A stretch of 64,000 nucleotides of DNA from Marispirochaeta sp. (GTDB taxonomy: Bacteria > Spirochaetota > Spirochaetia > JC444 > Marispirochaetaceae): contig CAXXFF010000004.1 of assembly GCA_963676835.2 (NCBI GenBank), forward strand, positions 192,001 through 256,000, given 5' to 3'. Made by a program: the position numbers and the translations under genes. Below, in pieces: positions 36,726-64,000 of the stretch (within the stretch, counting starts at the first letter, position 1; each line of letters begins with the position of its first letter). Below the pieces are notes generated by a model that had not been told where the DNA came from, did not search any database, and saw only the letters and a list, made by a program, of their open reading frames with translations.

Positions 36726-38210
36726 CTACAATAGCCCCACATCCTTAATCTCTTCCCCTGTATGCGGCTGGGGCGGCCAGTGGCTCCCCCGCTGACCGAA
36801 TAATCCGGGAATCGGCACGTATGCATATTCCTTGGGCTTCATTCCCTTAAGGACAGGACCATCAAACCACTCAGAATCATTTCCGTATAGCTGCTTTGAC
36901 AACTCAAGTTTCAGCCTGTCCAGTGTTTCTGAATACTCTGATGACGCAACAAGATTATGAAGATCCTCCGGATCATTAAGTACATCGAATAACTGAAAAA
37001 CATTTCCCGAGGAATAGTAAATCAGCTTATACCTGCCGTCATGAATCATACGGGTAGCATTAACTCCTTCCGCTTCTTCTCCGTAAAGAAAGTCACGCTT
37101 TTTTTCTCCCACAACAGAAATACCTTCAACCGAATCGGGAATTGGGATATCACACAGATCAAGCAATGTCGGCATTACATCCTGCAGGCCTACAAGCCGC
37201 GAATCCGTCGTGTTCTTTTTTACCCGTGTATCATTCGCCGGTCCGGTAAGGATAAACGGGACCCGGGCGGAATACTCGTAAAAGCAGCGCTTCGCCCACA
37301 GGCCATGATTGCCCAGCATATCACCATGATCGGAAGTAAACATGATGTATGTATTCTCCAGAAGCCCTTCTTCTCGCAAAGTCCCGATCACTCTTCGGAT
37401 CTGGTGATCGATATGGGTAACCGTTGCATAGAATGCACGGCGGGCATCAAGAATCATAGAGTCATTAAACCAGCGGGTATATTCAGTCGATTTCTGAAGC
37501 TTTGCCGGAAGTTTTTCTGAATCTGAAGCCCATTCACCTTTTACCGGAGTATCCATTTCAAGATTCCGGTACAGGTTAAGATAATACTCCGGTGGAGTCA
37601 GCGGAGGATGAGGAGCAACAAAAGACATGTAAAAAAATGCAGGGCGTGTCGGGTCACGACGCTTGATATACTGCGACATCTTTGCCGCTGTCCAGTTTGT
37701 ATTATGCATTTCTTCCGGCAGATGCCAGGGCCGGGTTACATACTGGTTATTACCCATACCATGCCCGAAAGCCTCTCCCGGATATCCATGTTCCCCGAGG
37801 AATTCCTCGTAATCATCAACAACCCCGTGGTGCCCGCGCCCCTCCTCAGCAAGAAGCACATCGTCGAAACCGATCCGGTCCCGCTGAGGAAAAACATGAA
37901 GCTTGCCGACTGCATATGCCTGATACCCGGCATTGCGGAAAGTCTGTGCCAGTGTCGGAAAATCCGGCATTTCAAGGGTCTGCTGAAAAATTCTGTCCCC
38001 ATGTTTCTGTGGTGTGGTACCGGTCATCATGGTGCGACGCGCCGGTATACATACAGGGCACTCGGAATAGGTACGGTTAAAACGAGTGCCGGTACGCGCC
38101 AGTTCATCCATGGTGGGCGTCTGAATTACATTGTGCCCTTCAGATCCGAGAAGCGGTCCGGGCCAATGATCGGTACAAATTAGAAGTACATTCTTTTGGG
38201 GTTTACTCAT
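36726..38210 (-). CDS. Cys-type (formylglycine-dependent) sulfatase, cytoplasmic
   Basis: PVCIPARRTMMTG (CxPxR), GKLH, PHPP, SDHGD; no signal peptide. Confidence 0.92.
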   Translation of the reverse strand: MSKPQKNVLLICTDHWPGPLLGSEGHNVIQTPTMDELARTGTRFNRTYSECPVCIPARRTMMTGTTPQKHGDRIFQQTLEMPDFPTLAQTFRNAGYQAYAVGKLHVFPQRDRIGFDDVLLAEEGRGHHGVVDDYEEFLGEHGYPGEAFGHGMGNNQYVTRPWHLPEEMHNTNWTAAKMSQYIKRRDPTRPAFFYMSFVAPHPPLTPPEYYLNLYRNLEMDTPVKGEWASDSEKLPAKLQKSTEYTRWFNDSMILDARRAFYATVTHIDHQIRRVIGTLREEGLLENTYIMFTSDHGDMLGNHGLWAKRCFYEYSARVPFILTGPANDTRVKKNTTDSRLVGLQDVMPTLLDLCDIPIPDSVEGISVVGEKKRDFLYGEEAEGVNATRMIHDGRYKLIYYSSGNVFQLFDVLNDPEDLHNLVASSEYSETLDRLKLELSKQLYGNDSEWFDGPVLKGMKPKEYAYVPIPGLFGQRGSHWPPQPHTGEEIKDVGLL

Positions 38211-38221
38211 TTAATTTCCCT

Positions 38222-39733
38222 TTATTCGTTAATCGCCGTTTTTGCTTTCTCGATTACATTCTTCTTTCCGTGGTAATCCTGGTACAGCGTCCATCCCAGG
38301 GTGGATACAGCAATGATCAGAAAGACAAGCGAGATTGGGCGGGTAATAAACGGCATCAGCGATCCATTCGCGTACATAAGACTCGAGCGCAGATTCAGCT
38401 CCGCGATACTGCTGAGAATGAAACCGATAATAAACGGCCCGAGAGGTATCTTTGCTTTCTCCAGAAAGAATCCGACTATGCCGAAACCGAACATAACCCA
38501 GACGTCAAAGAAGCGGTTATTGAGGGCGAATGTCCCGATAACGCAGAAAACTATCAGCAGAGGCTGTAAAATCGCCCGGGGAATATCAACAAGCCTGACC
38601 ATGATCAGACTTCCACCGATCATAATAAAAAACATGAAAATATTGGCCACGAAAGAGGAAGCCATAATGCCGTATACAATTTCCGGATCGCTGGTAAACA
38701 GCAGGGGGCCGGGGTTAAGATCGTGAAGAACCAGGGCTCCAAGAAGAATCGCCGTTACGATGCTCCCGGGAATTCCCAGAGTGATCAGCGGGATTAATGC
38801 CCCATTAATCGTTGCATTGTTGGCCGCCTCTGATGCAATAATTCCCTCTTCTGAACCGGTTCCAAAGCGTTCCGGTGTTTTGGATGAATTCTTTGCAGCC
38901 CAGTAAGCCATTATTGATCCAATAGTAGCACCGACTCCGGGGAGTATCCCTATCCAGGTACCGATTATCGAGGACCGTATCAGGTTTACTCCGTTTTCCC
39001 TAATCTCTTTAAAGGAAAGAAACATTCCCTTGAAGGAAAGCGGAATACGTTCCATTTTGGTTTCCACATCGGCAACATCATTGAGAATCTGGTTTATACC
39101 GAACAGACCGATCAGAACAGGCAGCAGACCGAAACCGCCGATCATATCCGGCGAGCCGAAGGTCATCCTGACTCTGCCCACAATGGGATCCACTCCCGGA
39201 ACTCCCACAAGCAGCCCGAGAAAGCCGGCGATTATAGCCCTGAGAATGCTTCCCTGACCTACAGCAGCAATAAGCACCAGGGCCATCAGAACAAGGGAGA
39301 ATATTTCGAAGGAGGTAAACTTGAGCGCGAAGCGAGCCATTACCGGCGATAAGAGGACAAGAAATATCCAGGCGACCAGTCCCCCGATAAAAGAGGCAGT
39401 AATGCCAAGACCGATGGCACGTCCTGAATTTCCAGCCCGGGCCATGGGATAACCGTCAAAAGTAGTAACCACCGATGCCGGCGTGCCGGGAATTCTAAGC
39501 AGCGTCGCAGTTATCAATCCTCCGCTTATTGAACCGATATACATGGATATAAGCAGGGTAATTGCATTAACGCTGGACATGTAATAGGTCAAGGGCAACG
39601 TAAGAGCAATGAGCATCGACCCGGTGAGTCCTGGAATCGCCCCAACCGTGCATCCCAGAAATACCCCGAGGAAGATATAAAATAACGGCATCGGCGCCAT
39701 AAGATGTGCAAAAGCACTGAATAAATAGGTCAT
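38222..39733 (-). CDS. tctA: Tripartite tricarboxylate transporter large permease (TTT1)
   Basis: GAIPGL, RIPGTPAS..FDGYPMA, GILPGVG, SEAANNA, LGIPG, PGPLLF. Confidence 0.93.
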   Translation of the reverse strand: MTYLFSAFAHLMAPMPLFYIFLGVFLGCTVGAIPGLTGSMLIALTLPLTYYMSSVNAITLLISMYIGSISGGLITATLLRIPGTPASVVTTFDGYPMARAGNSGRAIGLGITASFIGGLVAWIFLVLLSPVMARFALKFTSFEIFSLVLMALVLIAAVGQGSILRAIIAGFLGLLVGVPGVDPIVGRVRMTFGSPDMIGGFGLLPVLIGLFGINQILNDVADVETKMERIPLSFKGMFLSFKEIRENGVNLIRSSIIGTWIGILPGVGATIGSIMAYWAAKNSSKTPERFGTGSEEGIIASEAANNATINGALIPLITLGIPGSIVTAILLGALVLHDLNPGPLLFTSDPEIVYGIMASSFVANIFMFFIMIGGSLIMVRLVDIPRAILQPLLIVFCVIGTFALNNRFFDVWVMFGFGIVGFFLEKAKIPLGPFIIGFILSSIAELNLRSSLMYANGSLMPFITRPISLVFLIIAVSTLGWTLYQDYHGKKNVIEKAKTAINE

Positions 39734-39742
39734 ACATTTACC

Positions 39743-40243
39743 TCACGGAAGGTTAACAACAAGAACTTTCGTAAAAACCAGATACAGAATCTGACTCATC
39801 CCAACAGCCAATACGAACAGTGTCGGGAAGAAAACTGCATTGGATACTTTACGCTCCTGTCTGTGCAGAAGAATTCCAAGAAAAAGCAGAAGAACAACCG
39901 TGCTTATCCTGAATCCTATGAGGCCAATCAGGAAGATATAGGCAACTGTTGAGATTGCCGTGACCAGAGACATCAGCGGCTTGCCGGTTTTGGACTCTGC
40001 CGGAGTTCCCTCCTGTACAGCAGTACCAATGCTCTTGAGGGCACGAAATTTTCTGAAGCCCTGAGCAATAAGTGGAATGGAAAACAGAATAAGACTGAGA
40101 CTTAATGCTTTGGGGAGCGCAGCAGGACCTAAGGGTTCATACTCTGAAGGCTTTAATTTCAGACTCTCCAGGAACACCAGAACACTGATTACAACAAGCC
40201 CTGTGGACAGGGAAAAATCAGCGATATAAGATTTATCTTTCAT
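39743..40243 (-). CDS. tctB: TTT small permease (TTT1)
   Basis: 4 TM, LGPAALP, IGFRIST, C-terminal LP. Confidence 0.85.
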   Translation of the reverse strand: MKDKSYIADFSLSTGLVVISVLVFLESLKLKPSEYEPLGPAALPKALSLSLILFSIPLIAQGFRKFRALKSIGTAVQEGTPAESKTGKPLMSLVTAISTVAYIFLIGLIGFRISTVVLLLFLGILLHRQERKVSNAVFFPTLFVLAVGMSQILYLVFTKVLVVNLP

Positions 40244-40336
40244 TGTATGTGTGGTTCTCTCCGAATTGGAAAATAAACATCCCTGTGCAGACTGATGGTT
40301 CCGCCTGCATCAGGGTGCTGATAATCTGGATGCTTT

Positions 40337-41317
40337 TTATTTTCCCAGGTTATATATCTCGCCAAGCTTCTGGAGCTTATCTCCTTCAGCCTGAATCGCC
40401 TGCCTTAATACATCCCCCCGTTTGTATGAAGGAACCATAATCATTTCTTCCATTTTGGAACGAATGGCCGGATCCTGCATTACTTTCTCGAGGGTATCTG
40501 CCAGGTATTCAACTATGTCAGCTGATGTTCCGGGAGGGGCAAAAAACCAGTAACTTACGGGCTGAACAAAGTCTATTCCCTGCTCTTTTGCAGTAGGAAT
40601 ATCCTCCATACCCTTAACCCGTTCGGGCGCATAGACTGCCAGAGTTCTCATTTCACCGGACTGCTGATACTTAGCAACTTCATTAGTACCCATAATAGTC
40701 GTATCAACATTATTTCCCAGCACAGAGGCAATCCGCTGGGATCCGTCCCCGATGTGGACCATGTTGTATTCTCCTCCGGCAGACTGCTGAACTCCGAGAC
40801 TGGTAAAATGGGTAATGGCACCGATATTTGTCGCGATACGAACAGACTGGGGCTTATCCTTTAATGCCTTTGCAAGTTCGCCGAAGTTATTCCATTTAGA
40901 TTTTGCTCCAGTCGCTTCACACAGATAGTAGGTTCCGGCTTCCGCAATGGGAACAAAATCAAAGGGGCCGAAATCAGTGTTGCCAAGGATTTCATTAGTC
41001 CAGATATTTACAATATTCATCAGGATGGTATATCCGTCAGGATCTGCCTCAAGAACTTCACGTGATCCGATAGCACTTGCACCACCACCCATATTCACCA
41101 CAACAACCGGAACCGGGAGCAGTTCTTCAAGCTTGCGCACAAGCAGACGGGCCTGTGTATCGGTACCTCCACCGGCACCATAGGGAACAATCAGTTTAAT
41201 GGGCTTGGCAGGATACTCCGCGGAAGCCGCCTGCTCTTTTTCGGCAGAGCCTTCGGCAAACACAAAAGGAACAAGCATAATAAAAACAACACATAACAGC
41301 AGGATTCTTTTCAACAT
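40337..41317 (-). CDS. tctC: TTT substrate-binding protein (TTT1)
   Basis: YPAKPIKLIVPYGAGGGTD, NMGG, ADPDGYT, IPTAKEQG; AAAGGAG RBS. Confidence 0.92.
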   Translation of the reverse strand: MLKRILLLCVVFIMLVPFVFAEGSAEKEQAASAEYPAKPIKLIVPYGAGGGTDTQARLLVRKLEELLPVPVVVVNMGGGASAIGSREVLEADPDGYTILMNIVNIWTNEILGNTDFGPFDFVPIAEAGTYYLCEATGAKSKWNNFGELAKALKDKPQSVRIATNIGAITHFTSLGVQQSAGGEYNMVHIGDGSQRIASVLGNNVDTTIMGTNEVAKYQQSGEMRTLAVYAPERVKGMEDIPTAKEQGIDFVQPVSYWFFAPPGTSADIVEYLADTLEKVMQDPAIRSKMEEMIMVPSYKRGDVLRQAIQAEGDKLQKLGEIYNLGK

Positions 41318-41539
41318 AAAAACTCCTTTATTGAACATACGCTGTTTATTTAACCAATACCATACATATTGGATTAACTGTGATCATGAGATTGCCTACT
41401 TATGAACACACAGCGTTCCTAAACCCTACCATCACCTTTTTACCCTGTCAAGATTTTTTTTGAACACATATTGTTCCTAATTAACTGAATCACCGACTCC
41501 CAGCTTGACGTGTCGAATATTTTGTTGTAGGACAATAAT

Positions 41540-42739
41540 ATGCACTTACCGTTTATGCATGCAGAAGTTGAACGTCTAAGCAACAGAGAAGATCTGAAAG
41601 TACGCAGCCGCCAGAAGGCAGCTATTCTGAAAGAAATATACCTTATGCCTGAACCATCCAGACGCGCAATAGTCAAAAGTCTGGGAATCCGGAGCAGCAC
41701 TATTTCCGCATTGATAGATGAACTGATTGAGAGCAAGGCCATACAGGAAACCGGAAGACAGACAAATGAGCGCGGCCGTCCCCGGCTAAACCTTGCCTTA
41801 GGATCAAACAGCCGCATAATTTTATCAATTTATGCAGAGCATTTTCAGCTTATCGGAGGACTGGTTAATCTCGAAGAGCAGGTAATCTCAGAAGCTGTGA
41901 TTCCCATACCCAAAGAAACTACAAGTGCAGAATTTATACAAATATTTGATAACATGATAGAACAGCTGTTAGCACTGGTGCCGGAAAATGCAAAGCTTGT
42001 GGGTGTTGCTTTTTCTCCCCTTGGGACTGTTAATGCGTCTAATAACCAATGGTCCAAGGTCAGCCGCTGGCCGAACATTGAAAAGGTAGATTTCAACTAC
42101 ATTACAGAAAAGTACGGATTGCCTGTAAAGCTCAGACGAAATATCGAAACAATTCTTGATTATGAAATACAGACTACCCGTGAATTCTGGAATAAAGATA
42201 TTGCCCTTTTTCACTGGGGATACGGTGTCGGTTCTTCCTTTGCATCAAAGGGTCAGGTTATCGATACGGAGCGAGGAAACTATACAGGGATCGGCCATAC
42301 ACTTGTTAATCCCGATTCAAGTCAGAAATGCCACTGCGGAGCTCTGGGATGCCTCGAATCAGAGGCTGCAATCTGGTCCCTCCTGCCGCAATATGCGCAA
42401 ATAGATCCGCGGGTTTTACAGGATGTGGATAAAACCTATGAAATTCTTGCAGATGCCTTTTCCGAAAAGTATCCGTTTTTTAAAGAAGCTATGAATGCAA
42501 TAAAAATCGGTTTGTATAATTTATGTAAAATTTACAGTCCCGATTATGTTCTTTTTTTAAGCCCTTTTGCGCGTAACAGCAATATAGTAGCGACATTGAA
42601 ACGAACAACAGAAACATCGTTCCCCAAAGCGACCAACTTCGAGCCGGAGTTTCGTGTTATTGACGGTGATTACCGAGGAGCTCTTTATGCGAATGTGTAT
42701 CCGTTTATACGGGACGAGTTGCTGGAGATAATCGGGTGA
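41540..42739 (+). CDS. ROK-family transcriptional regulator
   Basis: N-terminal wHTH with RGRP; GYGVG; GH..CHCGALGCLE. Confidence 0.88.
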   Translation: MHLPFMHAEVERLSNREDLKVRSRQKAAILKEIYLMPEPSRRAIVKSLGIRSSTISALIDELIESKAIQETGRQTNERGRPRLNLALGSNSRIILSIYAEHFQLIGGLVNLEEQVISEAVIPIPKETTSAEFIQIFDNMIEQLLALVPENAKLVGVAFSPLGTVNASNNQWSKVSRWPNIEKVDFNYITEKYGLPVKLRRNIETILDYEIQTTREFWNKDIALFHWGYGVGSSFASKGQVIDTERGNYTGIGHTLVNPDSSQKCHCGALGCLESEAAIWSLLPQYAQIDPRVLQDVDKTYEILADAFSEKYPFFKEAMNAIKIGLYNLCKIYSPDYVLFLSPFARNSNIVATLKRTTETSFPKATNFEPEFRVIDGDYRGALYANVYPFIRDELLEIIG

Positions 42740-42925: not shown

Positions 42926-44383
42926 TTACGATATCAGCTCCGTTGGAATAGGAGTATAGGCAAGCAGTTTATCAATGACTGCTTCTTTTCCGCCATGCTC
43001 GGCAAGAGTCTTTGCCTGCCGTTCATGTGCAGCCTTATTTATTTCTTCCGGATTACAAATGCCCCTGAGAATTCCATCCATCTCTTCTACCAGAGCGGAA
43101 TATGCAGGGTCATCAATAAGATCGTTAAATTCCCCAGGATCATTCTCCAGATCGAACAGTTGGGGTTTGTAATTCATGTAGTAGTTATATTTATACTGTT
43201 TATAGCGGATCATATAGCCTGCATCCAGGTTGCCGATACAATGGGTTTCAGAAAAGATCGGCCGGTCTTCACTTTTTTCACCCCGGGCAAAAGGAAACAG
43301 AGATAATCCGGGTTTCCCTTCATCTTCAGGTTTTGAATCTGCTCCGACAGCTTCCAGTACGGTGGGAAATATGTCCAGTAATGATACAGCGCTGTTAACA
43401 CGGGTACCTTCGGGCAGGTCCGGTCCGGCCATGATCAGGGGAACCGCGACTGATCCTTCGTACATATTGTGTTTAAAGAAAAGTCCATGGTCGCCGGCAT
43501 TATCTCCATGATCGGTTGTATAAATAATCCGGGTATTTTCTGAAAGTCCGGCAGCCTCGAGAGCATCCAGCACATCACCTATCTGCCTATCCAGGTAGGT
43601 AACCATTCCATAGTAGGCAGCGATGGCTTTTCTATACTCTTCCTCAGTGAATGCTTCAGCCAGATGCAGTTCATTTCTAAAAACCTGTAAGGCCCCATGC
43701 TCAGGACGTTTTCCCGGTTCCCAGTCTTTTGGTAAAGGGATTTTATCGTAAGGTGTATACAGGTCCATAATGTCCTGAGGAACCTTCCACGGGAAATGCG
43801 GACAGACGAAGCCGACAAACAGACACCATGGTTTATCCTTTCCAGAGGCTTCATTGCTCAGAAATTCAACCGCCAGTTCACCAACTTTTTTGTCATATTC
43901 CAGATAGTCAGAATTTCCAGGGCCTGCATTAAGAACTGTATCCCTCAGCTTCGGACGGGTAAAGATTCCATCCCGGATACAGTGAGTTATATCACCAAGG
44001 TCATCCTTTACGTGAAGGGGGATTCTCTGATCAGGGAACCCTTCGGATGTGGATGCTATAGACTGGTAGTGCAGTTTTCCTATGGTTACAACCTCATGCC
44101 CCTGGTCTGTCAGGCGGTGGCCCCAACCCTCCTGCTCACCTTTATAAGGATGGGCATTATCCCAGTAGCCATGCTGGAAACTGTACTCTCCGGTTGTCAT
44201 CGATGCCCGGGAAGGACAACAGATGGGATTATTACAATATGCACTGTCAAAGGTAACACCCTTCGCTGCCAGTCGGTCCAGGTTAGGAGTATGTACGTAT
44301 GGGTTGTTGTAGCAACCGGTTATAAATTTATTATGCTGATCACTGAAAATGTACAGCAGGTTCATTGGTTTAGTATTTGTCAT
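42926..44383 (-). CDS. Cys-type sulfatase (choline-sulfatase-like), cytoplasmic
   Basis: SDQH, ICCPSRASMTTG, GKLH, PHFP, TDHGD; no signal peptide; AGGGAG RBS. Confidence 0.92.
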   Translation of the reverse strand: MTNTKPMNLLYIFSDQHNKFITGCYNNPYVHTPNLDRLAAKGVTFDSAYCNNPICCPSRASMTTGEYSFQHGYWDNAHPYKGEQEGWGHRLTDQGHEVVTIGKLHYQSIASTSEGFPDQRIPLHVKDDLGDITHCIRDGIFTRPKLRDTVLNAGPGNSDYLEYDKKVGELAVEFLSNEASGKDKPWCLFVGFVCPHFPWKVPQDIMDLYTPYDKIPLPKDWEPGKRPEHGALQVFRNELHLAEAFTEEEYRKAIAAYYGMVTYLDRQIGDVLDALEAAGLSENTRIIYTTDHGDNAGDHGLFFKHNMYEGSVAVPLIMAGPDLPEGTRVNSAVSLLDIFPTVLEAVGADSKPEDEGKPGLSLFPFARGEKSEDRPIFSETHCIGNLDAGYMIRYKQYKYNYYMNYKPQLFDLENDPGEFNDLIDDPAYSALVEEMDGILRGICNPEEINKAAHERQAKTLAEHGGKEAVIDKLLAYTPIPTELIS

Positions 44384-44405: not shown

Positions 44406-45923
44406 TCAACTCTCAACGGTATCAAGTGAGACTTTTTTATTTTTTGCTATAAAACCCGTAATCGACACATACAGGATGTAGCCGATTGTAAGGATAAGAA
44501 ACGTTCCGGATATGGGACGCTGAAAGAAATGTAAAAAACTACCATCTTCGAACATCAAACCCCGCAAGAGATTGCGTTCAAGAATCGCACCAAGAATAAA
44601 CCCCATTACGAATGGCGTCATATCAAACCCCAGCTTAACCAGTACGAATGCCAGCACACCAATCATCCAGACAGAGTACACATCAAATATCCGGTTATTC
44701 TGACTATATGCACCTATTACGCAGAACAGCATGACTATTGTCAGAATATAATGCCGGGGGATCTTTACCAGATGAAGGAAAGTTTTCATTCCCCAGTATT
44801 CCACAAGAATCATTAATACGTTTGCAACGATCAGAGTCGCAAAGATCGCATAGATAATATCTGCGCTCTTTGTAAAAATAAGCGGTCCCGGAGCAATTCC
44901 CTGCAGGGTAAGGCCAGCTAAAAGAATTGCCGTACCGGCATCCCCAGGAATTCCCAGAGTCAGCAGAGGTACCATTGCTCCACCAGTTACTGCGTTATTT
45001 GCAGTCTCGGAAGCGATAATTCCGTCTTTAATTCCATTGCCGAATTCTTCCGGTGTCTTCGATGCATTCTTGGCTGCAGAATAGGCCATGATATTGGATG
45101 TTCCGGCACCGATTCCCGGTAGGATTCCAATAAATGTTCCCATTAGAGCTGAACGAACAAGATTAAAGACCTGACCTTGAAAATCCTTCAGCTTTACCCC
45201 GAAGCCTTTCAATTTGGAAGTGTCATAACTGAGGTCAAAATCATCCTTATATGACTGCCCGGAAAAAAGAAACAATTCTGCAACCGCGTAAACACTTACC
45301 AGTACACAAATCAGCTGAAATCCAGCATTAAAAGACTCAAACCCGAATGTAAACCGTGGAGTTACCTCCAGTGCCGCGGGTCCAATAGTTGCAACCATCA
45401 AACCTATGATGCCGCTCATCAGTCCCTTTATTATGGATTTACCGGTAAGGCCTGCAATCAGGGAAAGAGAAAACAATGTAACGGCAAAATAATCAGCAGG
45501 TGTGAACTTAACTGCAACCTCCGCCAGGCGGGGTGCAATATTGAACAAAATCACCAGACTTATCATACCGCCGACAAAAGATGAAATTAATCCGAAGCCC
45601 AAAGCAGCCGCCGGCCGTCCATTCCTGGCCATGGGATAACCATCAAATGTAGTTGCGATGGCTGCCGGGGTACCTGGTATACCAAGCAAAACAGCAGTTA
45701 TCATTCCTCCCGAAGTACCGCCAATATAAAGACCAATCAATAGCGCCATGGACGAAATGGTATTCATACTGAAAGTAATAGGCATCAACAAAGCCATACC
45801 CATGGAGGCTGTTAACCCTGGACTTGCACCAAACATAATTCCGACACAAGTTCCGAACAGGATTAACCCGATAACATTGAACGAAAGAATTGCATCAAAA
45901 CCTGTTATATATTGCATAAACAT
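44406..45923 (-). CDS. tctA: TTT large permease (TTT2)
   Basis: GIPGTPAA..FDGYPMA, SETANNA, LGIPGD, PGPLIF. Confidence 0.93.
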   Translation of the reverse strand: MFMQYITGFDAILSFNVIGLILFGTCVGIMFGASPGLTASMGMALLMPITFSMNTISSMALLIGLYIGGTSGGMITAVLLGIPGTPAAIATTFDGYPMARNGRPAAALGFGLISSFVGGMISLVILFNIAPRLAEVAVKFTPADYFAVTLFSLSLIAGLTGKSIIKGLMSGIIGLMVATIGPAALEVTPRFTFGFESFNAGFQLICVLVSVYAVAELFLFSGQSYKDDFDLSYDTSKLKGFGVKLKDFQGQVFNLVRSALMGTFIGILPGIGAGTSNIMAYSAAKNASKTPEEFGNGIKDGIIASETANNAVTGGAMVPLLTLGIPGDAGTAILLAGLTLQGIAPGPLIFTKSADIIYAIFATLIVANVLMILVEYWGMKTFLHLVKIPRHYILTIVMLFCVIGAYSQNNRIFDVYSVWMIGVLAFVLVKLGFDMTPFVMGFILGAILERNLLRGLMFEDGSFLHFFQRPISGTFLILTIGYILYVSITGFIAKNKKVSLDTVES

Positions 45924-45940
45924 CTACATGATCTCCCTGA

Positions 45941-46441: not shown

Positions 46442-46510
46442 ACTATTCCTTCAGTTAAATAAAATACCTGGTGCGAAGTAATTTATTTCACACCAGGTAT
46501 GACAATCTGT

Positions 46511-54155: not shown

Positions 54156-54168
54156 AATTTATTTCTCC

Positions 54169-54651: not shown

Positions 54652-54715
54652 TTTATTTCCTCAAATGTGATGATAGTTTGCCGCTGCACAAAGAATATAT
54701 GCAGCGGCAAGAATA

Positions 54716-55758: not shown

Positions 55759-56712
55759 CTATAAATTATTGACCTTCCAGGCAGGCTCACGCCCTTCAAG
55801 GACTCCGATAATCCCCATGGCTGCATGGATTCCCATTCTATCCATCGCCTCATAGGTAAGCGCAGCATTATGAGGGCTGACGAGAACATTCTCTAGTTCG
55901 AAGAGTTTATTGCCGGATGATGCAGGTTCTTCCTGGAAGACATCCAGACCTGCACCGCGAATAGTCCCATCAACAAGAGCCTCGTACAAATCTTTCTCAT
56001 TAAGAACATCACCACGGGCGCAGTTAATAAGAATTGCTGTATTTTTCATTAGGGAGATGTTTTTTTTAGAGACCAGATTCCGTGTTTCCGGTGTGGACGG
56101 TACATGCAAAGAGATAAAATCTGCCTCACGGAATACCTCTTCCACGGTTTCCCGGACATCAATATTATCCGGAATCTGGTCCCGGGAAGCATAGGCATCG
56201 TACCCTATAACCTCCATTCCCAATCCGTTACTTGCTTTTCTGGCAACACTGCGCCCAATATAGCCAAGACCTATCAACCCGAGAATTTTTCCCTGGACCT
56301 CTATGCTTTGGGTAATATTTCTGGATTCCCAATTCCCTTTACGCGTCTGGAAATCCTGAAATACAAGATTTTTTGCACATCCCAAAAGCAGACTTATTGC
56401 ATGTTCCGCAACAGAATTTGAGTTCGCTATAGGCGCATTGGTAACCTGTATGCCCAGCTCGGTAGCGCTTTCTATATCTATGTTGTCAATACCTGCCCCA
56501 AATCTTGAAATCACTTTTAGTTTTTTACCGCTTTCCATAATTCGTCGGCTGTAACGGGCAGTCCTCACCAGCAGTGCATCACAGTCTTCAACCTCTTTGC
56601 AGATAGTATCCTCATCCGATGCAGAACCGATTACAACTTCATACCCTCTCTCCTGCAGGTATTCTTTCCCGCCAGATGTAATATCCTGAGGTACCAGGAC
56701 TTTAAAGCTCAT
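55759..56712 (-). CDS. D-isomer-specific 2-hydroxyacid dehydrogenase (SerA-like, no ACT domain)
   Basis: GAGIDNID, SVAEH, GLGYIG, INCARG, LDVFQEEP, SPHNA. Confidence 0.9.
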   Translation of the reverse strand: MSFKVLVPQDITSGGKEYLQERGYEVVIGSASDEDTICKEVEDCDALLVRTARYSRRIMESGKKLKVISRFGAGIDNIDIESATELGIQVTNAPIANSNSVAEHAISLLLGCAKNLVFQDFQTRKGNWESRNITQSIEVQGKILGLIGLGYIGRSVARKASNGLGMEVIGYDAYASRDQIPDNIDVRETVEEVFREADFISLHVPSTPETRNLVSKKNISLMKNTAILINCARGDVLNEKDLYEALVDGTIRGAGLDVFQEEPASSGNKLFELENVLVSPHNAALTYEAMDRMGIHAAMGIIGVLEGREPAWKVNNL

Positions 56713-56757: not shown

Positions 56758-56773
56758 TGCAAAAGGTGTGCCA
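56758..56773 (-). promoter_or_regulatory. sigma54 (-24/-12) promoter of the dehydrogenase-tctCBA operon
   Basis: Minus strand TGGCACACCTTTTGCA (TGGCAC-N5-TTGCA). Confidence 0.85.
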
Positions 56774-56929: not shown

Positions 56930-58873
56930 GTGTTCATGGTACGCATTTCTTTTCTGATTCCATCCATAGAGATCGCTGAGATTGTTGAGAACACATTCAA
57001 TGAGCACAATGAAATAATGGGTCATACCAGATCAATTGATCAGTACACATTGAAAATTCATATTGCGCCTACAATTAATGATGTCCTCGATGAAATGCTG
57101 GATTCCGATATAATCATTGCCCGAGGGTTATTGGCTGATAAAATTGAAGAACAGCATCCTAATCTGGTAGTAGTCCGAATACCTATTTCAGGCAGCGAAA
57201 TCATTCGAGCCATATTTAGCGGACTAAACAAAAAAGAGGGTGATCATACAAAGATAGGTGTACTGGGTGCTTACAACATACAGTATAGTGCCAGTGGCTT
57301 GGATAAGTTACTCAACATCGAACTTGCTCAATATCAGCAGCACACAAATAAACCGGAAGATATTCAGGCAGATCTTGATATGATGGTTTCTGATAACTGT
57401 AATGTAATTATATGCGGTTATAACACATTTCATTATGCCAAAGAACATGCATTGAATTACAACTGCAACATTGTTGCAATGAGCAAGGAATCATTCTTCC
57501 AAGCAATCACAGAAGCAAAACATGTAGCAAAAATTCGCAGACAAGAATATGAAAGTGCAATACAACATAAAGCTATTCTGGACAGCACAACTGAAGGAAT
57601 ACTGGTTTTGAATAGCAACGAAGAAATAATTTCGCTTAACAAAGTGGCTGGCGATATTCTTGGTATTAACGAAAAAACTAAAGGAAAAAAGCTATCTCAA
57701 GTGTTTCGTTTTTCCAAGTTTGCCCGCATTGCAAAAGGTACAATCGAATGTGAACATGAGATAGTTCAGGTTAATGAAAAATCTGTTGTTTTAACAAAAA
57801 CTAATCTTCACTTAAGGAATGACTTTATCGGAAGCGTTCTCTCCTTTCAGAAAACAGATACAATTCAACGAGAAGAAATTCGTATCCGTAACAAAATGTA
57901 CTTAAAGGGCAATGAAGCATTTTATAAATTTGATGATATCCTGGGTGATTCACCTCAAATCAGGGAAATTATCAAAACTGCAAAACAATATAGTTCTGTG
58001 AATTCAAATATTCTGATAACCGGAGAAACCGGAACCGGCAAAGAAATATTCGCCCAGAGCATTCATAATAATAGCGCAAGAAAATCAGGCGCCTTTGTTG
58101 CAATTAACTGCGCAGCACTTTCTCCAAGTCTGCTTGAAAGCGAATTATTCGGATATACTGACGGTGCATTTACCGGGGCAGTCAAGGGAGGGAAACAGGG
58201 TCTTTTTGAACTGGCACATAGTGGAACCTGCTTTCTAGATGAAATATCCGAATTGCCTCAGGAAATGCAAGGGCGCTTACTCAGGGTTATCCAGGAAAGA
58301 CAGGTAAGAAGACTTGGAGACGATCGTGTTATACCAATTGATATACGTATAATCTGTGCAACCAATAAGCCATTATTTAATGAAGTCAAGAATGGAAAAT
58401 TCAGAAGAGATTTATTTTATCGTTTAAATGTTTTAAAAATAACAATTCCTCCCCTTCGAGAGCGAAGAAACGATATCCCTATTTTTATGGAAAACTTTAT
58501 CAATCAATTCTGTATACAGTTTCATTCAGAAAAGAAGCATCTCTCAACCGCGGCTAAAGAATACATTAAAAATCTTTACTGGGATGGAAATGTGCGAGAA
58601 CTGAAGAATTTTTGCGAATGTTTAACAGTAACAACAGAAAGTACGCAAATCCAGGAACATCATATAGCGGCTTTACTGGACCAGACATACATGAAGGCGC
58701 CCCAAATATCACAGGGTAATGGAAAACACCAGTCTACAAAAACTATTATTGAAAAACAACTTATAGAGGAAGCTCTCTCGGCGTCTGATTCAAGAGCCGC
58801 AGCAGCACATTATCTTGGTATAAGTACCACAACTCTCTGGCGTAAAATGAAAAAACTTAACATAGAGATTTAA
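56930..58873 (+). CDS. PrpR-type sigma54-dependent activator (PrpR_N, PAS, AAA+, Fis HTH)
   Basis: IIARG, GETGTGKE, ESELFGY..GAFTGA, FLDEI, DLFYRL, GNVREL, LGISTTTLWRK. Confidence 0.92.
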   Translation: MFMVRISFLIPSIEIAEIVENTFNEHNEIMGHTRSIDQYTLKIHIAPTINDVLDEMLDSDIIIARGLLADKIEEQHPNLVVVRIPISGSEIIRAIFSGLNKKEGDHTKIGVLGAYNIQYSASGLDKLLNIELAQYQQHTNKPEDIQADLDMMVSDNCNVIICGYNTFHYAKEHALNYNCNIVAMSKESFFQAITEAKHVAKIRRQEYESAIQHKAILDSTTEGILVLNSNEEIISLNKVAGDILGINEKTKGKKLSQVFRFSKFARIAKGTIECEHEIVQVNEKSVVLTKTNLHLRNDFIGSVLSFQKTDTIQREEIRIRNKMYLKGNEAFYKFDDILGDSPQIREIIKTAKQYSSVNSNILITGETGTGKEIFAQSIHNNSARKSGAFVAINCAALSPSLLESELFGYTDGAFTGAVKGGKQGLFELAHSGTCFLDEISELPQEMQGRLLRVIQERQVRRLGDDRVIPIDIRIICATNKPLFNEVKNGKFRRDLFYRLNVLKITIPPLRERRNDIPIFMENFINQFCIQFHSEKKHLSTAAKEYIKNLYWDGNVRELKNFCECLTVTTESTQIQEHHIAALLDQTYMKAPQISQGNGKHQSTKTIIEKQLIEEALSASDSRAAAAHYLGISTTTLWRKMKKLNIEI

Positions 58874-58910: not shown

Positions 58911-58921
58911 GAAGCTATAAA

Positions 58922-59827
58922 CTATTTAAGAAACCCGCCATCCTTGAGTTGATCTCTCATTTTCTCTAGAACTATCCCTTCAGAAGGAAGATTCGGCTTA
59001 AAGGGCACACCTACATCCATATCTAAAAGATTACAATAATCTTTAGTTCCAACAGGGAAACTGGCTTTATCCATAACCAGTCTGATGGGATTAAGAGCAT
59101 ACTGAGCCTCCCGGGATCCTTCAAAATCACCGGCAACATATTTTTCGTAAATAGAAACCACAAGCTCAGGAATAAAGTTTGCAGTTGTAGCAACAGCCCC
59201 TGCTCCGCCATGACACATTGCACCGAAAATGAGGGTATCCTTGCCGCCGAGTACTTTAAAGCCGACATCGCTGTTACGCCGTATAAATTCTTCGGTCTGA
59301 GTCATATCACCGCTGCTGTCTTTCATACCCACGATATTCGGATAGGTGTGGGCCAGTTTTTCCACCAGATCGCCGCTCATGGTATAGGCGGTACGACCGG
59401 GATTATTGTAGAGCAGCATGGGAGTTTCTGGGATAGCCTCTGCAATTGCAGCAAAGTGACCGTAAAGCTCTTCATCAAAGGGTTTCAGGAACATCGGCTG
59501 CAGCACGGATACCGCATCCGCACCAAGTTCGACACCTTTCTTTGCCAGCTCAATACACTTGCCGGTACGGATGGAACCGATACCGCAGTATACTGGCACC
59601 CGGCCTTTAACCTGATCAATCATAATTGATAATCCCCGTTCGAACTCTTCATCGATCATATAGAACTCGCCATTGCTTCCGTAGGCGAGGATTCCATGCA
59701 CACCGCCTTCTATAACAAAGTCAACCTGCTTCCGCAGTTTCTTCTCATCAATCCTTTCCTGAGAGTCAATGGGTGTAATAATCGGGGGTATGATTCCCCT
59801 TACAAAATCACTTGATAATTTCTGCAT
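58922..59827 (-). CDS. DapA/NAL-family class I aldolase or dehydratase
   Basis: ITP, GSNGEF, LYNNP, Schiff-base KDSSG, GKD; AAGGAG RBS before ATG 59827. Confidence 0.88.
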   Translation of the reverse strand: MQKLSSDFVRGIIPPIITPIDSQERIDEKKLRKQVDFVIEGGVHGILAYGSNGEFYMIDEEFERGLSIMIDQVKGRVPVYCGIGSIRTGKCIELAKKGVELGADAVSVLQPMFLKPFDEELYGHFAAIAEAIPETPMLLYNNPGRTAYTMSGDLVEKLAHTYPNIVGMKDSSGDMTQTEEFIRRNSDVGFKVLGGKDTLIFGAMCHGGAGAVATTANFIPELVVSIYEKYVAGDFEGSREAQYALNPIRLVMDKASFPVGTKDYCNLLDMDVGVPFKPNLPSEGIVLEKMRDQLKDGGFLK

Positions 59828-59860
59828 ATCAATCTCCTTGTAATTCAATCAATTCTCTAC

Positions 59861-60125: not shown

Positions 60126-61148
60126 CTAAACCTTCCGCGTGGAATCCTGTATGACAAGACTCGATCCGAAAACAATATCTCGCGGGGCAATCTCCCTGCC
60201 CGATTTATCAGCCCGCAATATTATCAATTCATCCAGAAGCTTCATGGCGGCATCGCCTATTTCGTAAGACGGATACATATTCGCAGTTACTTTGGGCTCA
60301 ATGAAATCTTCGTATTCCGACACTTCCGAACCGGCATAGGCTGCCACGGCAATATCTTCCGGAACACGGAACCCTTTTTCGTTTATGGCCTTGATTGCCC
60401 CAAGGGACATCATGTGGTTTAGAGCATAAACCGCCTCAGGTTTTTCACATCTTTCGAGGAGCCGTTTTGTACACTCATAGCCGCTGTTAAAACTCATGTG
60501 CCCTTCTTCCGCTGGAAGTGCTTCCGGTTCAATACCAAACTCCCGGAAAGCGCGGTCTGCCCCCTCCATCCTGTCTGCAGAGTTCATCATATAGTCAAAG
60601 CCTTTGACTACATAAATCTTTCTGTACCCGGTCTCGAGCAGGTACCTTACAACCTGGTAACTCAGGGTGATATCATCCGCCCGGACACAGGATATATTGC
60701 GTTCAGGACTCCTCCGTGAAACAAGAACCAGGGGCATTACGTTTTTTATTGCGGCAAGATGATCCCATTCCCGGGATACAGGGAGGAGAATAATACCGTC
60801 AACTCTGCGCCCTACCAGCAGACTGATATACTCCTTCTCTTTTTCTATATCTTCATTGGTATGACACAGCATAATGTTGTAACCAAGCTCCTGTGCTCGG
60901 GCATCTATACTTTCCATTAATGCTGCAAAGAAGGGAGCCCGGTAATAGGGGACGACCAGTCCGACAATCTTGCTTTGCTTTTTCACCATACTGCGGGCCA
61001 CTGCGTTGGGATGGTAATTCAGCCTGCGAATGGCTTCTTCAACTTTCTTGCGGGTACTTATCTTTACATAGCCGTTTGCATTTATAACCCTGGAGACAGT
61101 TGTTACGGATACATTGGCTGCTTTGGCGATGTCCTTAATTGAAACCAC
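60126..61148 (-). CDS. LacI-family transcriptional regulator
   Basis: IKDIAKAANVSVTTVSRVIN, YHPNAVARSM, VPEDIAV. Confidence 0.92.
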   Translation of the reverse strand: MVSIKDIAKAANVSVTTVSRVINANGYVKISTRKKVEEAIRRLNYHPNAVARSMVKKQSKIVGLVVPYYRAPFFAALMESIDARAQELGYNIMLCHTNEDIEKEKEYISLLVGRRVDGIILLPVSREWDHLAAIKNVMPLVLVSRRSPERNISCVRADDITLSYQVVRYLLETGYRKIYVVKGFDYMMNSADRMEGADRAFREFGIEPEALPAEEGHMSFNSGYECTKRLLERCEKPEAVYALNHMMSLGAIKAINEKGFRVPEDIAVAAYAGSEVSEYEDFIEPKVTANMYPSYEIGDAAMKLLDELIILRADKSGREIAPRDIVFGSSLVIQDSTRKV

Positions 61149-61214: not shown

Positions 61215-62525
61215 TCAGAAAAGATTACCCAGGCTGTCAAACGCCAGCTCTTCTTCTTCGCCTACAATTTCAATCTGAGGATTGGCTTTTGCCTCTGGAA
61301 TCAGGGCTTCTGAAATCATTATCTCTCCGATTTCAAGGCTGTTTTTTATCCGGACAACCCGGGGGTTATTATAATCTATCATGTTACAGGTTTTTATCGC
61401 AGCTGCAACGGCAAGCCTGTCATTAGCAAGAATCATGGGAATCTTTATAGGGCGCATCACCGTAGATGTAAGTGCATTGGGATAGGTGGCCTCAAAATCA
61501 TACTTATCAAAAGCTCGTTGTACAGAAAAATCTGCCACCCCAAGGCCCATACCGTTTCCATGGGAAGCATCGGTAATATCAAGAACAACAACCCGCTGCT
61601 TCTCTAAACCGCCTGATGCATAGGGTGTAGAAAAAGTTCCGGTTATGGTAGCATCCATACCGCTCCCGCTGATATTCTTTCCCACCTCATCCACAATAAG
61701 AACATCTACTGAATCAAACATAATTGAAGGCATCCACCTCTTTGATTCCAGAAGCAGCGCAGGCTCTTCCTCACTGATCTTTTCTGCGGGAACAGCATGA
61801 ATACTCCTTGTTTTATCATAGGCGTTTTCTATAAGACCAAGCCCGAAAAGCACTTTTCCCGAGTTCAAGACAGTCTTTCCGATACTCAGGAGATTATCTA
61901 CCATTGCCCCAAACCCATCGGCATGACAGATTTCAGCTCCATACTGTTTCCCCAGGCCGATAACCGCCATTTTGGTAAGCCCGCTCTCAATTACCCCGGA
62001 AAACGCGGTATGCGCCTTTATCCGCCCTATCAGCACAATTCCATCCGCTTCCGAGGCATATTTGTCTATTCGTACCGGTTTACCATTCTCCGCCACGCCT
62101 ATCTGAACCGTTTCCATACTTGAGAGGATGGGACACCCTACAGACTCTTCTGTAATTCCATAGCCGGAGAGCACTTCCAGCTGACCTTCCGCGGTTGCCC
62201 CCCCGTGACTTCCCATGGCGGGAATAACAAAAGGATATGCACCTTTTTCTTTTATTCTGTCAGCGACTGATTTCAGGATTTCTATGATATTGGATATTCC
62301 CCGGCTCCCCGCTGTAAGAGCTATCCTCTGTCCAGGCTTTACAGCATCAAGAGTTCCGGGTCGCTGAAGAGCGGCCTCTACTGCCACCCGGATATCTGCT
62401 ATGGAATACAAGTCAAATCGCTGTTCAATCTTCACAAATTTAGGCAATCTCTGCTTTGATACTATTTCTGCAACCGTCTTATCCGCGAATGCTGTTTTTC
62501 CTGGAGATAATCCCATTTCTTCCAT
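61215..62525 (-). CDS. LarA-superfamily putative nickel-pincer racemase/epimerase 2
   Basis: GSRGI, PAMGSHGGATAEGQ, RIKAH, SGLTKM..H, GKNISGSGMD; start may be slightly downstream. Confidence 0.82.
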   Translation of the reverse strand: MEEMGLSPGKTAFADKTVAEIVSKQRLPKFVKIEQRFDLYSIADIRVAVEAALQRPGTLDAVKPGQRIALTAGSRGISNIIEILKSVADRIKEKGAYPFVIPAMGSHGGATAEGQLEVLSGYGITEESVGCPILSSMETVQIGVAENGKPVRIDKYASEADGIVLIGRIKAHTAFSGVIESGLTKMAVIGLGKQYGAEICHADGFGAMVDNLLSIGKTVLNSGKVLFGLGLIENAYDKTRSIHAVPAEKISEEEPALLLESKRWMPSIMFDSVDVLIVDEVGKNISGSGMDATITGTFSTPYASGGLEKQRVVVLDITDASHGNGMGLGVADFSVQRAFDKYDFEATYPNALTSTVMRPIKIPMILANDRLAVAAAIKTCNMIDYNNPRVVRIKNSLEIGEIMISEALIPEAKANPQIEIVGEEEELAFDSLGNLF

Positions 62526-62598
62526 TATTTAATCCTGTAGTAAACTAATGAGACTGCCTCACAGCAGCCCCATTACTGTTTTGGAAGAGCTATTATTT

Positions 62599-64000
62599 TT
62601 ACGATTGTAGTGCTTCCCGCTCTTTCTTTTCTCTGCGTTTATTTTTTATCACCGTGGAAACTGCAGAATAAAGACCTATCAACAGGAATCCGGCTGCAAT
62701 TGGACGTGTCAGGAAGGGAAGAAAATCTCCTTCAGTATACATGAGTCCGCGACGCAGGTTAGTCTCCGCAATAGGCCCGAGAATAAATCCGAGAATTATC
62801 GGGGGCAGAGGATAATTAAACTTGCTCATTACATAGCCGAGACTGCCGAATATCAGAATGGTTGCTACATCAAATATCCTGTTATTAACTCCATACGACC
62901 CGACGACACAAAGCGCGATTATTGCCGGAAGAAGGTAATGCTTCGGTATTCTCAAAAGCCGAACAAACATCCGCATACCGAAATATTCGGCTATAAGCAT
63001 AAACACGTTACCAACGATAAGTACGGCAAAAATAGAATATACAATATCCCCGTTTGTTTGAAAAAGCAGAGGCCCCGGCGCTATGCCGTGGATCATCAAC
63101 CCGCCGAGCAACATCGCAGTAACCGTATCTCCGGGAATACCCAGGGTCAGGAGCGGAACCAGGGCTCCACCAATAGTTGCATTGTTTGAAGATTCTGATG
63201 CAACAAGCCCATCAATACAACCGGTACCGAATTTCTCCGGATGTTTGGAACTGTTTCGAGCCGCAAGGTAAGCGATGATATTGGAAATACCACTGCCCAC
63301 ACCGGGTAGAATTCCAATACCGGTTCCTATAACACTGGACCGGACCATGTTAACAAACTGCTCTTTGAACTCTTTCAGAGACACTCCGAAGCCTTTGATA
63401 CTGAAATTGGCTACTTTCACATCCTTCATACTGACATCGGCTTCCGCAGTCTTCATAATTTCTGAGACAGCAAACAGTCCGATAAGAGCCGGAAGAAGGT
63501 TAAACCCCGCTTCAAGAGAATAAATACCATAAGTAAAACGGGGAAAAGCGTCGATTGGAGCATTGCCGACGCATGCAAGTAAAACTCCGACAAGTCCAGC
63601 AACCAGCCCCTTGCTCAGAGACTTTCCAGACAGGCTGGCAATCATGGTCAAAGAGAATAGTGCAATGGCAAAATATTCCATGGGACTGAATTTCAGAGCT
63701 ATTTTCGCCAATGGGGGAGCAATGAAAAACAAAGCAATAAACCCGATCATTCCGCCGAGAAACGAAAAGAACACTCCGATTCCCAACGCCCTGCCAGCTT
63801 CACCCCGTTCTGCCATGGGACTGCCGTCAAAGGTGGTTGCAATAGATGATGGTGTTCCCGGAATTTTAATCAGCACCGCCGCGATTAAACCTCCGGAGAT
63901 ACCACCAATGTACAAAGCAAGAAGTACAGCCATTCCCTGAACCGGACCAAGTCCGTAGGTTATGGGGAGAACCAGTGCTACAGCCATTGTAGCAGTAAGC
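62599..64000 (-). CDS. tctA: TTT large permease (TTT4), N-terminus beyond window edge
   Basis: KIPGTPSS..FDG, SESSNNA, LGIPGD; frame open to the window end. Confidence 0.92.
   Translation of the reverse strand, partial: LTATMAVALVLPITYGLGPVQGMAVLLALYIGGISGGLIAAVLIKIPGTPSSIATTFDGSPMAERGEAGRALGIGVFFSFLGGMIGFIALFFIAPPLAKIALKFSPMEYFAIALFSLTMIASLSGKSLSKGLVAGLVGVLLACVGNAPIDAFPRFTYGIYSLEAGFNLLPALIGLFAVSEIMKTAEADVSMKDVKVANFSIKGFGVSLKEFKEQFVNMVRSSVIGTGIGILPGVGSGISNIIAYLAARNSSKHPEKFGTGCIDGLVASESSNNATIGGALVPLLTLGIPGDTVTAMLLGGLMIHGIAPGPLLFQTNGDIVYSIFAVLIVGNVFMLIAEYFGMRMFVRLLRIPKHYLLPAIIALCVVGSYGVNNRIFDVATILIFGSLGYVMSKFNYPLPPIILGFILGPIAETNLRRGLMYTEGDFLPFLTRPIAAGFLLIGLYSAVSTVIKNKRREKKEREALQS

Follow-up and report, generated by a model that had tools for sequence, protein, structure and literature searches.

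Tripartite tricarboxylate transporters (TTTs) import mostly di-anions, sulfolactate and aldarates included, according to part of PMC5812351, and a section of PMC13390454 describes a TTT that takes up alginate products. In the systems covered by these excerpts, SlcHFG (sulfolactate), Halomonas TctABC (galactarate/glucarate) and the TTT of Vibrio sp. C42 (alginate), tctCBA genes lie beside genes for the catabolism of anionic acids, and the ligand table of PMC5812351 contains no sulfate ester. Most characterised glycan sulfatases are described as periplasmic in a passage of PMC10154612. A literature search by title or abstract start, thin on subscription papers, returned no pathway that combines a TTT with a sulfatase. 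Here we describe a region of a Marispirochaeta genome in which tctCBA genes are placed in the same manner but have formylglycine sulfatases among their partners.

The window, meaning the whole stretch of DNA analysed, is 64,000 nucleotides long (G000:C4:192001-256000, G000 being the genome under study and C4 its contig CAXXFF010000004.1). We are confident that the region from position 36726 onwards is a mosaic and not one pathway. Probably it consists of four separately inherited cassettes, A to D, each with its own TTT and regulator, two of which would take up a small sulfated acid and remove its sulfate in the cytoplasm. Directly observed are the genes present, the fact that cassettes B, C and D were gained or lost separately, and active-site residues of the sulfatase type. 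Gene calls in 36726-64000 were tested with Pfam and NCBIfam profiles, 22 open reading frames (ORFs) being given to Pfam, and every gene in the list of the original prediction was upheld: two sulfatases, three full tctCBA sets and a fourth tctA, two ROK regulators, an anaerobic sulfatase-maturating enzyme (anSME), a TauE-family protein, two LarA-like proteins, a 2-hydroxyacid dehydrogenase, a PrpR-like sigma54 activator, a DapA-family protein and a LacI regulator. As had also been predicted, no glycoside hydrolase, ATP-binding cassette (ABC) or SusCD gene was among the 22 scanned ORFs. The features are as follows; G002 is a sister species, described below.

36662-36690: terminator-like hairpin by sulfatase 1
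36726..38210, minus strand: cassette A, sulfatase 1, Cys-type (C54-x-P-x-R), S1_46-related, no signal peptide (PF00884; top PDB matches 7OZ8, 9KOQ)
38222..39733, minus strand: cassette A, tctA1 (PF01970; 99% identical in G002)
39743..40243, minus strand: cassette A, tctB1 (PF07331)
40337..41338, minus strand: cassette A, binding protein gene tctC1 (PF03401)
41540..42739, plus strand: cassette A, ROK regulator 1 (PF00480; in G002 anSME comes directly after it)
42926..44383, minus strand: cassette B, sulfatase 2, Cys-type (CCPSR), choline-sulfatase/SpAS-like clade, without a Glu386 equivalent
44406..47518, minus strand: cassette B, tctA2 (44406-45923), tctB2 (45941-46441) and tctC2 (46511-47518), by Pfam
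47647-47674: sigma70-like site upstream of ROK2, 11/12 match
47723..48979, plus strand: cassette B, ROK regulator 2, by Pfam
48979..50226, plus strand: anSME, the sole anaerobic sulfatase maturase of the genome (TIGR03942)
50281..51063, plus strand: TauE-family exporter (PF01925)
51170..52447, plus strand: LarA1, group-22 LarA homologue with LarA fold (NF052515)
52656..55708, minus strand: cassette C, tctA3 (52656-54155), tctB3 (54169-54651) and tctC3 (54716-55708), by Pfam
55759..56712, minus strand: cassette C, D-2-hydroxyacid dehydrogenase 1, 2HADH1 (PF02826/PF00389)
56759..56773, minus strand: sigma54-type -24/-12 motif upstream of 2HADH1-tct3
56930..58873, plus strand: cassette C, PrpR-like sigma54 activator (PF06506 and PF00158)
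58922..59848, minus strand: cassette C, DapA-family aldolase/dehydratase 1, DapA1 (Pfam; below the dapA cut-off)
59862-59876: sigma54-type motif at DapA1
60126..61148, minus strand: cassette D, LacI regulator, by Pfam
61215..62525, minus strand: cassette D, LarA2, group-22 LarA homologue (NF052515)
62599..64000, minus strand: cassette D, tctA4, full gene to 64107 (Pfam and extended reading)
G000:C4:256119-263997, same strand as tctA4: cassette D beyond the window, with tctB4, tctC4, DapA2, 2HADH2, an iron-dependent alcohol dehydrogenase (Fe-ADH), PdxA2 and a DUF1537 kinase

TTT sets 1-3 and tctA4 were called by Pfam, tctC4 by BLAST, and tctB4 by position and orthologue match. The fourth set, which had been taken as partial, is indeed cut within tctA4 by the window edge, but tctB4 and tctC4 complete it beyond; as predicted, the cluster continues, running about 8 kb past the edge to window-equivalent position 71,997, for a total of about 35 kb. 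The regulators differ from cassette to cassette (ROK1, ROK2, the PrpR-like activator and LacI). The start of sulfatase 2, ATG at 44383, was inferred from orthologue alignment, and that of LarA1 is most likely the ATG at 51170. The anSME scores 449.8 bits against a TIGR03942 cut-off of 349.45 and has radical SAM and SPASM domains. Genome-wide, G000 has 18 tctA matches, five group-22 LarA homologues and four TauE-family genes, and the clustering of such genes is therefore less special than it appears. By contrast in number, there are three sulfatases and one anSME, and two of the three sulfatases and the sole anSME lie in the cluster.

To assess inheritance, we compared the region with that of congeners: G002, a one-contig genome of a sister species in the same genus, and G001, G003 (97% complete) and G004. 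G002 is colinear with the window from 29,322 to 42,739, the ROK1 stop, and the alignment resumes 12 bp later at 48,977, the anSME start. Cassette B (sulfatase 2-tctA2B2C2-ROK2; 42740-48976) is absent from G002 and is thus a clean insertion or deletion between ROK1 and anSME; cassette C (sigma54 activator-2HADH1-tct3-DapA1; 52.4-60.1 kb) is absent as well. The cassette B and C blocks have GC contents of 43.5% and 41.6%, lower than the genome's 48.4%. G002 keeps cassette A with 96-99% conservation, and its sulfatase 1 is 96% identical (locus L035). TauE is missing from the cluster site of G002, and its 75% orthologue sits after a second sulfatase-1 copy. No match to sulfatase 2 at E<=1e-90 was obtained from any of five congeners. 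G001 and G003 have no PF00884 match and no anSME match, and both carry four group-22 LarA genes. Cassette D occupies the same flanking locus in both: in G003 LarA2, tctC4 and tctA4 are represented by orthologues of 72-94% identity, and in G001 the LarA (49%) and the TctC are different ones. LarA2 orthologues are 72-75% identical in G002 and G003. A tctC3 orthologue (about 70%) occurs in the sulfatase-free G001, and tctA3 is 92% identical to a paralogue on contig C3 of G000, in a unit close to a gene that resembles glucarate dehydratase (721.7 bits, below the cut-off of 828.7). Because cassettes B, C and D were gained or lost separately among congeners, one co-inherited pathway is not supported.

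Pairing of a TTT with a sulfatase recurs outside the window. All three sulfatases of G000 come after a tctA, including one on C3 that shares 47% identity with sulfatase 2 and has a GntR-like gene. We examined 80 loci, 68 with a sulfatase-1 orthologue (at least 47% identity) and 12 with more distant sulfatases from the same scan. The 68, which include two G002 loci (L035 and L038) and 14 loci with less than 3 kb of flank on one side, are non-independent samples for which we claim no statistic. A TTT gene lies within 1.5 kb of sulfatase 1 at 15 of the 68 and at 1.6 kb in one more (16/68), and tct matches were found at 0 of the 12 others. TTT-linked orthologues come from Spirochaetaceae, Nitrospinota, Limnohabitans, Cohaesibacteraceae, Geminicoccaceae and Paracoccus, among others. 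Their TctC partners fall into at least three groups with 22-36% mutual identity, so the pairing probably arose more than once. TctC1 orthologues (51-82%) adjoin sulfatase-1 orthologues at other spirochaete loci. Relatives of sulfatase 2 also follow a tctA, at the near-identical loci L102 and L103 (53%; a ROK2 homologue is present), at L104 (48%, GntR) and on a Chelativorans plasmid (41%). A metagenome scan with sulfatase 2 returned two near-identical loci. Among 401 genomes of an alphaproteobacterial sample, three have a sulfatase-1 orthologue; two plasmid matches to sulfatase 1 came without usable context, sulfatase clusters in the ESM Atlas mostly bear generic names, and TctC sequence matches gave no indication of ligand.

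For cassettes A and B we infer TTT import and cytoplasmic desulfation by anSME-matured enzymes, which we regard as likely. TctC would bind a sulfated anion and TctAB would bring it in intact; anSME would turn the active-site Cys of the sulfatase into formylglycine, the sulfatase would free sulfate in the cytoplasm, and TauE would probably send it out. The desulfated acid would then enter core catabolism encoded elsewhere in the genome, where uxaC and uxuA are present and could take it. This keeps the import, desulfation and export steps of the original prediction, by inference, and drops its continuation as a single chain through C2 epimerisation, redox and aldol cleavage. The cytoplasmic location had rested on an apparent lack of signal peptides, and this holds: the metal-binding Asp is residue 14 in both sulfatases (in sulfatase 2 counted from ATG 44383), which leaves no room for one.

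Both sulfatases have the S1 motif C/S-x-P-x-R (C54-I-P-A-R in sulfatase 1, CCPSR in sulfatase 2) together with the metal-binding Asp and an SDH/TDH motif. A Lys-x-His beside the nucleophile distinguishes arylsulfatases from phosphonate monoester hydrolases, which have Tyr-x-Thr/Asp (excerpt of PMC5488252). The Lys/His signature is kept in both enzymes, as K103/H105 in sulfatase 1 (67 of 69 aligned sequences, the other two being gaps) and K117/H119 in sulfatase 2. On these residues we rejected a phosphonate hydrolase identity for either.

The top two PDB matches of sulfatase 1 are 7OZ8 and 9KOQ (254 and 242.5 bits; the next scores 158.5). 9KOQ is EfAS from Enterococcus faecium, and 7OZ8 appears, from residue matching, to be BT1918, an S1_46 enzyme with 3S,6S-GlcNAc (N-acetylglucosamine) 3-O-sulfatase activity: six residues named in a part of 10.1101/2021.07.23.453482 fit the 7OZ8 chain at a constant offset of 2, and two metal-site numbers there do not. 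Equivalences in sulfatase 1 were counted by hand on the 7OZ8 alignment (chain number = paper number + 2). Compared with 7OZ8, sulfatase 1 keeps equivalents of the ring-orienting R143 and N174, as R125 and N155 (67 and 68 of the 69 sequences), and has Y94 as Phe. The N-acetyl-binding set of BT1918 is lost, with F75 for Y94, A306 for R327 and a gap at Y408, and no Arg occurs at 306 in any of the 69 sequences; the pattern of F75, R125, N155 and a non-Arg 306 is common to sulfatase-1 orthologues. Sulfatase 1 further differs from BT1918 in its Cys rather than Ser nucleophile, in lacking a signal peptide and in its linkage to a TTT instead of a SusCD locus. It seems closest to S1_46, the 3-O-sulfo-GlcNAc sulfatases. 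In marine S1_46 enzymes the N-acetyl-binding residues vary and the substrate is unidentified, according to the same part of 10.1101/2021.07.23.453482; a literature search joining S1_46 with marine, glucuronic and 3-O-sulfate, thin on subscription papers, gave gut mucin use only. Because the ring residues are kept, the N-acetyl residues are lost and TTT ligands are mostly di-anions, our lead guess, a tentative one, is a 3-O-sulfated gluco-type pyranose acid lacking the N-acetyl group, such as glucuronate 3-sulfate.

Sulfatase 2 has as its top PDB matches the choline-O-sulfatase BetC of Sinorhizobium meliloti (6FNY) and the dimeric SpAS1/SpAS2, and keeps the equivalents of C54, K102, H104, H201 and K309. 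Glu386 defines choline-O-sulfatase activity (section of PMC5870055). By hand count on the alignment sulfatase 2 has Ile397 at this position, and it scores 263 bits with TIGR03417 against a cut-off of 433.45; we therefore rejected a choline sulfatase identity. From these comparisons sulfatase 2 would seem to offer no substrate lead beyond "not choline sulfate".

Cassettes C and D are each predicted to work independently of the sulfatases, C as a sigma54-controlled aldarate or hydroxy-acid unit and D as a DUF1537/PdxA2 tetronate route. DapA sequence matches gave no indication of substrate. In cassette D the DUF1537 kinase gene adjoins the PdxA-family gene, as in the DtnK/PdxA2 system, and both systems lie by a solute importer; cassette D differs in adding group-22 LarA, DapA-family, 2HADH and Fe-ADH genes and in scores below the equivalog cut-offs. 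D-erythronate is the C2 epimer of D-threonate; the DtnK/PdxA2 route, reportedly described by Zhang et al. in 2016, is said to yield dihydroxyacetone phosphate and CO2. LarA2 might then epimerise C2 of the sugar acid before the DUF1537 kinase acts; by analogy, a tetronate C2-epimerase ahead of the kinase is a serious candidate role, if at somewhat less than even chances. Excerpts of PMC9997740, PMC10580937 and PMC12994016 only name the paralogue or describe related OtnK routes, and a search with four of the five terms LarA, DUF1537, PdxA, threonate and nickel, with subscription papers mostly outside it, found no literature that joins LarA with the others. In G003 (L127:6989-9326), cassette D extends into a gene for a classical LarA homologue that reaches none of the named family cut-offs, and into an Ldh2 gene 69% identical to window 34639-35652.

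LarA1 (433.1 bits) and LarA2 (529.7 bits) both exceed the cut-off of 400 for NF052515, "NPN-dependent isomerase, group 22" (NPN, nickel-pincer nucleotide). A passage of PMC7583248 lists group 22 under "unknown function", with short-chain dehydrogenase/reductase (SDR), IlvD, LarE, tripartite ATP-independent periplasmic (TRAP) transporter and uronate isomerase neighbours. Passages of that paper and of PMC11770544 give no activity for the group; other LarA enzymes C2-epimerise 4-deoxy-tetronates, and group 22 is not named in the available portion of PMC11770544. Likewise, LarA1 and LarA2 stand in a sugar-acid transporter context, and larB, larC and larE are present in the genome (C2:112.9-115.4 kb), all above cut-off. 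The predicted LarA1 model (pLDDT 92.3) matches solved LarA structures with Z 18-21 at only 12-16% identity; 9EIA gives Z 21.4 and a root-mean-square deviation of 3.9 over 329 residues, and the first unrelated match has Z 6.5. A PDB sequence search with LarA2 returned no match. All 26 sequences compared share R59, H91, H156, K169 and H185, which resemble R75, H108, H174, K184 and H200 of LarA, a set of two catalytic His, an NPN-tethering Lys, a Ni-binding His and a phosphate-binding Arg, in order and approximate spacing. The match is by spacing rather than residue-level superposition, and there is no Asp72 equivalent. Since H156 is invariant, we rejected membership in the single-His LarA subfamily (His to Asn; excerpt of PMC12611868). 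Group-22 LarA is uncharacterised, with C2 racemisation or epimerisation as its predicted activity.

Twenty of 30 group-22 LarA matches were fetched with 20 kb each, those set aside being five of G000, four of G002 and one of G023. None of the 20 loci has a sulfatase, anSME or TauE match within the fetched 20 kb; ten have a TTT, seven a TRAP binding protein and three DUF1537 with PdxA, one of these being the distant G033, which also has an IlvD gene. Of five plasmid LarA loci, one lacks annotation; the other four have UxaA, UxaC, 2-keto-3-deoxygluconate-type or AraD genes as neighbours, three have lar biosynthesis genes and none has a sulfatase. Close LarA1 orthologues at 61-82% identity exist, some named from gut Clostridia and Sphaerochaeta; in 301 phylum and 401 class genomes they were found only in G000 and G002. 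A classical LarA homologue lies 22 kb past the cluster (L002:11468-12751; G000:C4:285964-287250) and matches the LarAH6 malate racemase best, at 406 bits against a cut-off of 500.

Promoter motifs were used for their positions only, not their counts. With the sigma54 -24/-12 consensus and a sigma70 counterpart, counts in the window compared with shuffles were not above chance (38 against 34.0; for sigma54, 2 against 0.81, a count reached in 22 of 100 shuffles). The PrpR-like activator gene has a sigma54-type motif on either side, both on the appropriate strand, such a motif stands directly upstream of DUF1537 in G000, G001, G002 and G003, and PrpR-like activators adjoin TTT operons at several other loci.

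Several observations weigh against four self-contained cassettes of which two process sulfated acids. No TTT adjoins sulfatase 1 at 52 of the 68 orthologue loci, including all 15 Poribacteria records. The congener G004 has 11 sulfatases, of which only one follows a tctA; two TRAP clusters contain others, and ABC genes are found near most of the remainder. The TTT is therefore one among several importers. Downstream partners of sulfatase 1 vary by taxon (SDR pairs, class III aminotransferase, ltnD-otnK, major facilitator superfamily transporter) and thus indicate no single product. The broad promiscuity of EfAS (part of PMC12421950) weakens, by analogy, any substrate call for sulfatase 1. In cassette D, DUF1537 scores 248.4 bits against 450 for DtnK, and PdxA 307 against 583 for D-threonate-4-phosphate dehydrogenase; the DtnK model is named for Gammaproteobacteria, so the low score would lower membership, not analogy. 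Cassettes C and D both have sigma54-type motifs, which makes a shared activator here possible. LarA1 lies after anSME-TauE on the same strand, and in an independent spirochaete metagenome-assembled genome (L036) sulfatase 1, a class III aminotransferase and a group-22 LarA stand in a row, which leaves room for a link between cassette A and some LarA enzyme.

These last two arrangements, along with the physical clustering itself, also speak for the integrated pathway originally proposed, in which sulfated sugar acids are imported, desulfated, epimerised by LarA, oxidised or reduced, and cleaved by a DapA-family aldolase; so does a Marinovum plasmid on which a 40% relative of sulfatase 2 lies between HpcH aldolase, DapA-family and enolase-superfamily genes. 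The modules nonetheless come and go independently, which the original prediction had itself named among the grounds for its refutation, with G002 lacking B and C, and G001 and G003 carrying cassette D without sulfatase or anSME. LarA1 is split by a frameshift in G002 (possibly an assembly error) though cassette A is conserved there, and DapA1 has no match at E<=1e-80 in five of five genomes searched, G002 included, a search of which a positive control was not part. Near the 68 sulfatase-1 orthologues, group-22 LarA occurs just twice and a DapA-family gene four times (every one at least 6.6 kb away), anSME nine times, DUF1537 once, and TauE once by an insensitive single-sequence profile. LarA1 and the L036 LarA are 36% identical, no closer than other paralogues; they join in a FastTree tree (support 0.92) as its two longest branches, probably through long-branch attraction, and we rejected a sulfatase-specific LarA clade. 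A single pathway is accordingly improbable.

We give similarly little weight to a partial funnel, in which sulfatase 1 frees a tetronate, from sulfated threonate or an ascorbate-sulfate breakdown product, for the LtnD-like and DUF1537/PdxA2 genes. On a Paracoccus seriniphilus plasmid (L108) a sulfatase-1 orthologue and TTT run directly into ltnD-otnK-aldolase-TIM barrel genes, and cassette A has an LtnD-like/Ldh2/TRAP unit on one side and cassette D on the other in both G000 and G002. Yet the ltnD-otnK arrangement occurs at one of the 68 loci, the LtnD-like gene scores 285.8 against a cut-off of 350 bits, and the retained ring-oxygen contact fits a pyranose, not an open four-carbon acid. It is also quite unlikely that, instead of serving carbon catabolism, the sulfatase cassettes are there for sulfur scavenging, for detoxification of aryl or alkyl sulfates or for the hydrolysis of phospho-esters. 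In favour of such a role, cassettes A and B have no dedicated downstream catabolic genes, and EfAS shows a less than 10-fold preference among sulfate, phosphate and phosphonate esters (PMC12421950, in part); but the Lys/His signature speaks against a phosphonate hydrolase, and the ROK, LacI, GntR and LysR regulators and TauE would better fit carbon use with sulfate disposal.

Returning to the four-cassette mosaic, its furthest extension would make cassette A the first TTT for a sulfate ester, a 3-O-sulfated uronic or aldonic acid from marine glycans, with cytoplasmic S1_46-type desulfation, and group-22 LarA a new class of NPN-dependent sugar-acid C2-epimerases, LarA2 acting on D-erythronate/D-threonate and LarA1 on the desulfated product. 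Taken as a whole we hold this to be doubtful.

Other sulfatase cassettes were seen in passing. At the C3 site (G000:C3:423267-429921, L147; L027/L028 in G002) the two species have different sulfatase-TTT cassettes, that of G002 comprising a ROK gene, another sulfatase, tctCBA, the second sulfatase-1 copy and TauE; both are interrupted by insertion-sequence-like ORFs, and we read the site as a cassette-exchange hot spot. A second sulfatase family, missing from this window, accompanies sulfatase 1 and TctC1 at L037:3-1124, L038:4131-5534 and L032:7719-9206 (60-66% mutual identity) and may point to a doubly sulfated substrate. L108 carries two TTT-sulfatase cassettes in tandem (3457-17146). Relatives of sulfatase 2 (41-44%) lie near FAD-linked oxidase genes on Sulfitobacter and Paraburkholderia plasmids (L111, L114), a weak lead towards a sulfated 2-hydroxy acid such as lactate 2-sulfate. 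At L083, L084 and L117, two SDR domains or genes, one of them YdfG-like, come after an alphaproteobacterial sulfatase-1 orthologue.

Next to cassette A, at window 29337-35652 on the minus strand, lies a fifth carboxylate cassette, conserved in G002, with genes for an Ldh_2-family dehydrogenase (AllD-like, barely above the PRK15025 cut-off), an LtnD-like dehydrogenase below its cut-off, TRAP dctQMP, YhcH/YiaL and LacI. We take its layout to resemble that of yiaK-O, with different enzymes. Elsewhere, tandem similar 529-residue membrane proteins with a sodium:solute symporter look at their N-termini are encoded at window 18345-19934 and 20250-21839 (plus strand), and two tandem near-identical short ORFs of about 290 bp at G000:C4:273191-273768 are probably a repeated element.

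What remains, as read from sequence, would be cassettes that couple an importer to a cytoplasmic sulfatase, and a DUF1537/PdxA2 unit that includes a group-22 nickel-pincer enzyme. For most S1 sulfatase subfamilies and LarA groups no substrate is known, and a sulfatase fixed beside its own binding protein can lead directly to one. Since TctC1 accompanies sulfatase 1 in spirochaetes, it provides a handle on the substrate of marine S1_46-type enzymes, and cassette D supplies a short candidate substrate list for group-22 LarA. If intact import of sulfated monomers by bacteria without glycan-degrading genes at these loci is true, it would constitute a cross-feeding link in anoxic sulfated-glycan turnover.

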